A stretch of DNA of 64,000 bases from Escherichia coli (GCF_044324785.1 NZ_CP172127.1); one strand, 5' to 3'; shown: positions 59,046-60,917, counted from the first letter of the stretch. The notes: generated from the sequence alone by a model not told the origin. Numbers and translations are program-made.

Positions 59046-60917
59046 TTATCTACGCATGAATGCGTATTCTGATTGTGGTTGTGCGACGTAATGCCCCGGC
59101 CCGACGCATTGCAACGAGACGGCTGCAACCTCTTCGCCACGCAGATGAATATTGCTGGGAAGATCGTCCGACAGCAGTACACGCTGCGGTCGTTGTCGGG
59201 ACGGTTCCGCGACCGGAACTGCCGCCAGTAATTTACGCGTATAAGGATGCTTCGGGTTTTCGAAGACCGCGCGCCGTGGACCAATTTCAACAATTTGTCC
59301 GAGATACATCACCGCCACACGATGACTAATCCGCTCTACCACGGCCATATCGTGGGAGATAAACAGATACGCAATGCCGAAATCACGCTGGAGATCGAGC
59401 AACAAGTTGATAATCTGCCCGCGAATAGAAACATCCAGCGCCGAGACGGCTTCGTCGGCAATGATCACTTTCGGATTCAATGCCAACGCGCGAGCAATGC
59501 AGATACGCTGGCGCTGACCGCCGGAAAACTCATGCGGGTAACGCCAGGCATGTTCAGGTAACAGGCCCACGCGCTCCAGCAACCACGCAACGCGGGCAGC
59601 CGCTTCTTTACCTGGCAATAAACCGTGTACGCGCAGCGGTTCGATAATCGAATCACCGATGGTCTGACGTGGGTCCAGCGAAGCGTAAGGGTCCTGAAAA
59701 ATAAACTGAATATCGCGGCGCAATGCCTGAAGTTTGCCGGGTGACAAGGTATCGATTCGCTGACCGTTAAAGATAATTTCGCCGCCCTGCGATTCGACCA
59801 GGCGCAGCAACGCCCGCCCGGTAGTGGATTTACCGCTGCCAGACTCGCCCACCAGCGATAGCGTTTCACCAGGCCAGAGATCAAAACTGACTTTCTCAAC
59901 GGCATGCACTTCCCGCGTTACGCGATTCAACAAACCGCTGCGCAAAGGGAAACGGGTGACCAGATTACGCACCCGTAAAACAGGTTCGCCATCCACCACC
60001 GTTTTCTGCTCGATGGGGGGGGCCTGTTTCGCTGGATGTTCAAGCGATATCAATGGGAAACGTCGGGGATAATCTAACCCTTTCATCGCACCAAGTTGCG
60101 GAACAGCAGCTAACAGCGCACGGGTGTAAGGATGTTGCGGTGCATGAAAAATCTGTTCGACGCTACCCGTTTCCACCGCCTCGCCCTGATACATCACCAG
60201 TACCCGATCGGCAATCTCTGCCACCACGCCCATATCGTGAGTGATAAAGATAACGCCCATCGACATCTCTTTTTGCAATACTTTGATTAATTGCAGGATC
60301 TGCGCCTGAATAGTGACATCCAGCGCGGTGGTTGGCTCATCGGCAATCAGCACAGCCGGGCGGCATGACAGCGCCATCGCAATCATCACTCGCTGGCGCA
60401 TCCCGCCAGAGAGTTGATGCGGATAACGTGAAAGAATGGTTTGTGCCTCCGGAATGCGTACCTGATCCAGCATCCGCTTCGCCTCGACCATTGCTTCTTC
60501 ACGACTGGCGTTTTGATGCAGACGAATAGATTCAGCAATCTGTTCACCCACAGTAAATACCGGGTTCAGCGATGTCATCGGCTCCTGAAATATCATCGCC
60601 ATATCCGCACCGCGCACATGGCGCATTTGTGCAGCGCTCTGCTCGCTAAGTTCAATCACTTCGCGACTGCGCCGCCGCAACAGCATTTGATCGCACTGCA
60701 CTAAACCGCCCGCCTGTTCCAACAGGCGCATCAATGCCAGCGCAGTCACTGACTTACCGGAGCCGGATTCGCCAACAATTGCCAGCGTCTCACCGCGTTG
60801 CAGGCTAAAAGAGAGATTGCGGACCGCAGCTATTTTCTGCTGGTCCTGCATAAAGGCAATATTCAGATTTTCAACCGCCAGCACATCACCGGCATCAAGT
60901 TCATCACTGTGTGGCAA
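59046..60917 (-). CDS. gsiA: Glutathione ABC transporter ATP-binding protein GsiA (623 aa)
   Basis: Two ABC cassettes, each with GESGSGKS; the 623-aa length implies a TTG start at 60915-60917. Confidence 0.92.

Follow-up and report, generated by a model that had tools for sequence, protein, structure and literature searches.

UUG and GUG initiation codons of gsiA, potG and ybjT in Escherichia coli: very probably genuine, previously annotated starts with well-placed Shine-Dalgarno sequences

Initiator fMet-tRNA decodes GUG and UUG in the P site, and because of this a protein whose gene carries either start codon still begins with methionine. Literature figures put ATG at approximately 88 % of start codons genome-wide in E. 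coli, or give proportions of 83/14/3 % or 82/14/4 % for ATG, GTG and TTG, and in reporters GUG and UUG have been found to initiate at 10 to 100 % of the level of AUG. Non-AUG initiation in native E. coli genes also includes the AUU starts of infC and pcnB. Tetracycline-inhibited ribosome profiling (TetRP) has confirmed UUG and GUG starts that were re-annotated between 2006 and 2014, and gsiA, then named yliA, is itself one such case (Nakahigashi et al. 2016, PMC4909307). For overlapping gene pairs, loss of a stop codon has been described as the most frequent route of origin (Huber et al. 2023, PMC10666635).

Here we present an analysis of three non-ATG starts in a segment of the E. coli chromosome. 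This segment of 64,000 nt, referred to as the window, is the whole stretch of DNA that was analysed and lies in reverse-complement orientation relative to the K-12 map. We conclude with high confidence that the UUG of gsiA and the GUG of potG and ybjT are genuine, previously annotated initiation codons of core E. coli genes, positioned by Shine-Dalgarno (SD) sequences. The strength and spacing of the SD, the N-termini of homologues and the start codons of orthologues all indicate that the annotated codons are very probably the true starts, with ribosome profiling as further evidence for gsiA. These starts were already known: all three are the same as in the reference annotation, and the gsiA TTG also has published ribosome profiling.

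Such codons are part of the normal background. Among the 60 K-12 coding sequences across the window, 54 start with ATG, five with GTG and one with TTG. The resulting 6/60 (approximately 10 %) compares with 12 to 18 % genome-wide and is no more than expected by chance. The sequence-only reading that had singled out gsiA, potG and ybjT was right on these three genes and had omitted the GTG starts of ybjL, ybjM and rimK.

Annotated starts and their Shine-Dalgarno sequences

Each of the three codons was found where the sequence-only reading had placed it and on the implied strand (Table 1). Its statement that the K-12 protein lengths require TTG in gsiA and GTG in potG and ybjT was borne out, as these codons yield proteins of 623, 377 and 476 aa. 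In K-12 MG1655 (NC_000913.3) the same lengths and the same start codons are found for gsiA (b0829, 867520-869391, TTG at 867520), potG (b0855, 894991-896124, GTG at 894991) and ybjT (b0869, 906852-908282, GTG at 908282). The gsiA TTG does lie within the 3′ end of iaaA, as had been claimed, and the resulting 14-nt overlap is common to both genomes. In other strains, the non-ATG starts assigned by NCBI PGAP to the three genes are identical to those of K-12 RefSeq. Compared to K-12, the window strain carries nucleotide differences at 32 of 1872 positions in gsiA, 31 of 1134 in potG and 56 of 1431 in ybjT, corresponding to 7, 1 and 5 amino-acid differences, respectively.

Table 1. Features of the gsiA, potG and ybjT loci and other candidate sites, with positions counted from the first letter of the window
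Feature	Position	Strand	Remarks
ybjT initiation codon GTG (GUG)	17896-17898	+	first NTG after in-frame stop
ybjT CDS	17896-19326	+	476 aa; SDR/NmrA-like domain and DUF2867
ybjT SD AAGGAGGGA	17884-17892	+	-12.6 kcal/mol; overlaps ltaE TAA stop (17883-17885)
potG initiation codon GTG (GUG)	33444-33446	-	K-12 match, orthologues
potG CDS	32313-33446	-	377 aa
potG SD GGAGAG	33452-33457	-	-6.6 kcal/mol, best candidate; inside conserved GCCGGAGAG
Two hairpins, potF-potG spacer	33477-33526 (33497-33526 and 33477-33493)	-	predicted, centroid structure
potG upstream ATG	33525-33527	-	404 aa; rejected
rimK GTG start	36468-36470	-	additional non-ATG start
ybjM GTG start	38346-38348	-	additional non-ATG start
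ybjL GTG start	38618-38620	+	additional non-ATG start
gsiA CDS	59046-60917	-	623 aa; glutathione ABC importer ATPase, two ABC domains
gsiA initiation codon TTG (UUG)	60915-60917	-	K-12 match, TetRP, orthologous codons
gsiA SD AAGGGGA	60923-60929	-	-7.8 kcal/mol, best in-frame candidate; 5 nt before TTG
gsiA downstream ATG	60849-60851	-	601 aa; rejected
gsiA downstream GTG	60882-60884	-	612 aa; 2006 K-12/W3110 annotation
gsiA upstream ATG	61023-61025	-	659 aa; rejected
iaaA CDS	60904-61869	-	321 aa; upstream cistron of operon
iaaA stop TGA	60904-60906	-	within gsiA codons 4-5
iaaA 3′ end / gsiA 5′ end overlap	60904-60917	-	14 nt
iaaA codon AAA	60928-60930	-	ancestral TAA stop site; loss extends IaaA by KGDTVATQ
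Sigma-70-like site	61948-61976	-	upstream of iaaA

We scored every in-frame ATG, GTG and TTG, from the upstream in-frame stop to about 100 codons downstream, by its pairing energy with the 3′ end of 16S rRNA. In all three genes the annotated codon is an in-frame NTG that marks the 5′ end of the conserved protein, and its SD, 5 nt upstream, is the strongest of all in-frame candidates (-7.8 kcal/mol for gsiA, -6.6 for potG and -12.6 for ybjT). The sequence-only reading had suggested an analysis of ribosome-binding-site spacing as a check. The other gsiA candidates, given by their distance in codons from the TTG, are an ATG at -36 (-1.5 kcal/mol), a GTG at -6 (-3.0), a GTG at +11 (-3.0) and an ATG at +22 (+0.4). 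The potG candidates are an ATG at -27 codons (+0.6 kcal/mol) and a GTG at +34.

The ybjT start follows the TAA stop of ltaE by 10 nt, with the SD core AAGGAGG sitting 5 nt before the GTG. The claim of a strong ribosome-binding site holds for this gene: the AAGGAGGGA of the window strain pairs better than its K-12 counterpart AAGGAGAGA (-9.2 kcal/mol). There is no upstream start candidate in this window, where the in-frame GTG found 30 nt upstream of ybjT in K-12 reads GCG. The annotated start is 8 residues before the GASGYIG Rossmann motif, and the next candidates downstream, a GTG at +18 and an ATG at +76 codons, lie beyond it. For ybjT it is thus the SD, the domain boundary and stop-codon logic that point to this GTG as the probable start.

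Reading of these codons follows the usual mechanism of bacteria: an SD 5 nt upstream positions the 30S subunit, and the initiator fMet-tRNA pairs with the near-cognate NUG codon. [quoted passage not shown] Weaker start codons may hold down the output of these low-copy, internal-cistron subunits.

Orthologous start codons and initiation profiling

For gsiA, one scan of species-representative genomes provided 80 loci across Enterobacterales, with 79 alignable species. The codon was counted at a fixed homologous position, 11 codons before the conserved beta-1 strand, which is where the GsiA start lies in the window. A start codon stands at this position in 69/79 species (33 with TTG, 27 with GTG and 9 with ATG), the remaining 10 having N-termini displaced by a few codons. 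Leucine-type codons at this position are all TTG save for CTG in two Erwinia genomes with displaced N-termini, and valine-type codons are all GTG. Such uniformity is what would be expected of a start codon and not of an internal hydrophobic residue. In 21 species the homologous codon is the sole in-frame start after the preceding stop, and in several genera, such as Lelliottia, Enterobacter, Klebsiella, Siccibacter and Franconibacter, that stop is just 3 to 5 codons upstream. In orthologues the corresponding SD site carries TAAGGAG or TAAGGGG.

Searching the PDB returned no solved chain of E. coli GsiA or PotG, and homologues were used for N-terminal alignment. In these alignments residue 4 of Mycobacterium tuberculosis Rv1281c corresponds to GsiA residue 12, residue 4 of E. 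coli DppD to GsiA residue 13, and residue 10 of PotA (378 aa) to PotG residue 12, so that the N-terminus of the family falls at the annotated starts. Among the best 120 PotG homologues, 55 have 377 aa and 50 have 379 aa. The latter read M-x-V-NDAIPRP: their start has been called two codons upstream, and the homologous codon is valine. In DNA from five other genera the homologous potG codon is GTG in Salmonella, Erwinia, Rahnella and Pectobacterium and TTG in a Cedecea-like genome, and the upstream GCCGGAGAG is kept in 5/5 of these orthologous loci. In Rahnella the GTG is directly preceded by an in-frame TGA (-3).

The start codon therefore switches among orthologues in gsiA and potG, and the homologous codon remains a start codon in all three genes. 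In ybjT it is conserved, with GTG in all five genera examined and no switching seen among them. The N-terminus, beginning M-[PSA], is common to all 106 unfused YbjT orthologues. In four other genera (Salmonella, [Enterobacter] lignolyticus, Trabulsiella and Leclercia) the ybjT GTG stands behind TAAGGAG, with in-frame stops 12 to 42 nt upstream. An LtaE-YbjT fusion through a 13-nt-deletion allele was found in 0/5,426 complete E. coli genomes. The same search recorded a 10-nt deletion in one of the 5,426.

Published initiation-inhibitor profiling, another check that the sequence-only reading had named, gives a positive answer for gsiA, a weak in vitro signal for potG and none for ybjT. In Table S2 (row 8) of the TetRP study, yliA (gsiA) is assigned a new TTG at 866743 (U00096.2), 33 nt upstream of the 2006 start and identical to the 2014 annotation; the signals in three samples were 46/140/71 for this TTG and 0/0/3 for the 2006 GTG (PMC4909307). 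Initiating ribosomes have thus been shown at the gsiA UUG in vivo. Unlike gsiA, potG and ybjT are absent from the supplementary tables searched for that study. In vitro, INRI-seq with retapamulin has no peak at the annotated starts of gsiA or ybjT and a weak one at the potG GTG (above 5 in 2/5 replicates), and the in vivo Ribo-RET values tabulated with it are zero for all three genes. Low expression under the conditions used is the likely explanation for these missing signals. The TRAINSPOTTER N-terminomics supplements have no entry for N-terminal peptides of GsiA, PotG or YbjT.

Alternative starts and their public records

The expectation that ATG-preferring gene callers would truncate these genes held in part. 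Both gsiA and potG have an in-frame ATG upstream (61025 and 33527), and therefore ATG or longest-ORF logic extends them, to 659 and 404 aa; ybjT alone is without an upstream alternative. Exact look-up of the K-12 sequence length variants found the 623-aa GsiA, the 377-aa PotG and the 476-aa YbjT on at least 1000 contigs each. The variant forms are GsiA of 612 aa (12 contigs), 659 aa (6) and 601 aa (3), PotG of 404 aa (49), and YbjT of 400 aa (45), 458 aa (17) and 486 aa (7). PGAP and most public calls thus use the non-ATG starts, and wrong calls go in both directions and are rare. The historical mis-annotation of gsiA was to a downstream GTG (2006), not to an ATG.

This GTG, 11 codons downstream of the TTG, was the official gsiA start until 2014; the 612-aa protein survives in records such as BAA35517.2, and an in-frame GTG is frequent at the equivalent position in orthologues. 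The conserved beta-1 strand (VLAVENL) begins with the residue that this codon encodes, and the codon is therefore conserved for coding reasons, whereas the switching between TTG, GTG and ATG that marks a start is seen 11 codons upstream of it. It has no SD (-3.0 kcal/mol), and its TetRP signal is next to nothing compared to that of the TTG. The 612-aa start is largely refuted and we regard it as very improbable. That the longest-ORF ATGs of gsiA and potG are the true starts is very improbable. They are in frame without an intervening stop, and the 659-aa and 404-aa proteins do occur in public records, but neither ATG has an SD (-1.5 and +0.6 kcal/mol), and the extension peptides (MKGMSRYRLTPK... 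or MPEGRTTPAGNSHH...) are matched by nothing in homologues or in PotA. Moreover, in-frame stops stand 1 to 5 codons upstream of the short gsiA or potG start in several other genera. The 36-aa GsiA extension, for which PDB homologues offer no equivalent, is an out-of-frame reading of the iaaA coding sequence. The potG ATG is not conserved in the five other genera and lies within the stem, at the foot, of a stable predicted hairpin. The two hairpins of this spacer are without a U-tract, and no intrinsic terminator was called between potF and potG on the coding strand.

The opposite proposal, that downstream ATGs are the true starts (M23 of GsiA, M64 of PotG and M77 of YbjT), can point to the 601-aa GsiA and 400-aa YbjT records. 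It would remove the first beta-strand of the ABC domain from GsiA, the Walker A region from PotG and the GxxGxxG Rossmann motif from YbjT, and none of these ATGs has an SD. In GsiA the residues lost would include 12 to 22, aligned to the N-terminal strand in homologous ABC ATPases, and the pairing energy at this ATG is +0.4 kcal/mol. None of the three genes is in the alternative-site table of INRI-seq, whose oligos span about -30 to about +150 nt and so reach the gsiA ATG at +66, with those of potG (+189) and ybjT (+228) lying outside. Downstream ATG starts are very unlikely, with a probability close to nil.

Correct N-termini matter for expression constructs, for proteomics databases and for structural studies of the GsiABCD and PotFGHI importers. 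Versions of the wrong length persist in public records at the percent level, and start-site errors at non-ATG genes take the form of extension as well as truncation. Comparing orthologous start codons, through TTG/GTG/ATG switching and nearby in-frame stops, settles such errors without experiments. Beyond annotation quality the significance is small.

The iaaA/gsiA overlap and its possible consequences

The layout in which gsiA starts 14 nt inside iaaA is found in Escherichia and most Citrobacter. In most other genera of Enterobacterales, including Salmonella, Klebsiella, Enterobacter, Leclercia and many others, iaaA ends ...GIYRE-TAA, 9 to 12 nt before the gsiA start; Erwinia has a similar end with one or two extra codons before the TAA. 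This TAA is also the first part of the gsiA SD, TAAGGAG or TAAGGGG. The codon at the stop site is AAA in Escherichia and most Citrobacter and CAG in Intestinirhabdus. Relatives thus keep the stop, while the overlap lineage has a sense codon followed by the next in-frame stop. This comparison of sequences shows that the overlap arose when the Escherichia/Citrobacter lineage lost the ancestral TAA of iaaA, changed to AAA, and IaaA gained eight codons (KGDTVATQ), up to the TGA within gsiA codons 4-5.

The arrangement raises the question of whether initiation at gsiA and ybjT, from the correct starts, depends on translation of the upstream cistron and not on independent binding of the 30S subunit. 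Both starts are close to an upstream stop, with the ybjT SD overlapping that of ltaE. The isolated initiation regions of gsiA and ybjT are silent in vitro (INRI-seq), whereas gsiA is strong in vivo (TetRP), and predicted local stems at both starts include upstream coding sequence. Against this, the stop-to-start distances of -14 nt for iaaA/gsiA and +10 nt for ltaE/ybjT (+94 nt for potF/potG) are not within the -8 to +6 nt over which termination-reinitiation typically operates, and the "+10 nt" class of E. coli is thought likelier to initiate independently (PMC10666635). Strong SDs also favour independent initiation. The stems at gsiA and ybjT are not significant compared to shuffled sequences (z = -1.85 and -1.53). 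Around the gsiA SD and TTG the predicted fold reaches -23.7 kcal/mol, but 9/200 shuffles are as stable, and structure-mediated coupling was rejected as unsupported for this gene. RNAalifold on the gsiA start region of 17 species returned no conserved pairs and thus no conserved structure. Assistance of initiation at gsiA and ybjT by upstream-cistron translation is possible but unsupported, and full dependence on it is a tentative reading that we consider doubtful.

A more specific version is rather unlikely in our judgement: loss of the iaaA TAA in the Escherichia/Citrobacter lineage may have put a weak gsiA UUG inside the translated iaaA frame and made GsiA synthesis dependent on ribosomes translating iaaA. 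If true, it would explain the strong in vivo signal together with the silence of the isolated initiation region in vitro. No promoter-like site for gsiA was found within iaaA; the sole sigma-70-like site on that strand is upstream of iaaA (Table 1).

Compared to described systems, the iaaA/gsiA pair fits the stop-codon-loss route of Huber et al. (PMC10666635), in that an upstream TAA has become AAA and the following in-frame stop, a TGA located within the downstream gene, is used. At 14 nt its overlap exceeds those of the frequent -1, -4 and -8 classes, in which coupling has been demonstrated (PMC10666635). The pair illustrates an evolutionary path already on record and does not represent a novel type of feature. 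The three starts are likewise of a familiar type and are unrelated to the rare AUU starts of infC and pcnB: AUU is a rare near-cognate codon working at 1 to 2 % of AUG, whereas UUG and GUG are canonical and start approximately 3 to 4 % and 14 % of genes, respectively.

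Non-ATG initiation codons and the start of potG

All six non-ATG starts of the window (TTG for gsiA; GTG for potG, ybjT, ybjL, ybjM and rimK) are kept between this strain and K-12. The sequence-only reading had named gsiA, potG and ybjT; the annotated starts that complete the set are listed in the table, together with structures predicted upstream of potG. These predicted hairpins might constitute an mRNA-stabilising or processing element between the genes for the binding protein and the ATPase.

Annotated GTG starts missing from the sequence-only reading, and predicted spacer structures
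Feature	Position	Strand	Remark
ybjL GTG start	38618-38620	+	annotated
ybjM GTG start	38346-38348	-	annotated
rimK GTG start	36468-36470	-	annotated
Two stable GC-rich hairpins, potF-potG spacer	33477-33526	-	predicted; without U-tract

Among the Erwiniaceae potG homologues (L086 and P0017-P0119), two gene callers place the start two codons apart in Erwinia and Pantoea, yielding either a 379 aa protein beginning M-x-V-NDAI or a 377 aa protein from a GTG homologous to that of E. coli. The true start is ambiguous in Erwinia billingiae, since the ATG at -6 nt and the GTG at 0 have near-equal Shine-Dalgarno scores.

Alternative and fused YbjT products

The 486-aa YbjT variant found in databases originates from an in-frame GTG located 30 nt 5′ of the ybjT start in the K-12 upstream region (L094). 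Where K-12 has this codon, the window carries GCG (17866-17868), and this alternative start is therefore absent in the window strain.

The 3′ end of ltaE (17861-17881), close to the junction with ybjT at 17896, contains direct repeats, CTGGCGCG, at 17861-17868 and 17874-17881 bounding a 13-nt unit. Loss of this unit brings ltaE into the ybjT frame, reading through the Shine-Dalgarno sequence and resulting in an in-frame LtaE-YbjT fusion of 809 aa. Among the homologues listed, 14 entries are LtaE-YbjT fusions (720-814 aa), ten of which have a deletion junction of 13 nt, 10 nt or 1 nt. The 10-nt version occurs in a single genome out of 5,426 complete genomes, NZ_CP076318.1, in which PGAP annotates ltaE as a pseudogene. 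Some of the fusions other than that of NZ_CP076318.1 may stem from sequencing errors.

Divergence from K-12 at the 5′ end of ybjP

The genes adjoining ybjP show 97-100% identity; the 5′ part of ybjP itself (about 24238-24363) has only about 80% identity to K-12, and its alignment begins at nucleotide 25 of the gene. This has the appearance of an allele that diverges where the lipoprotein signal peptide is encoded.
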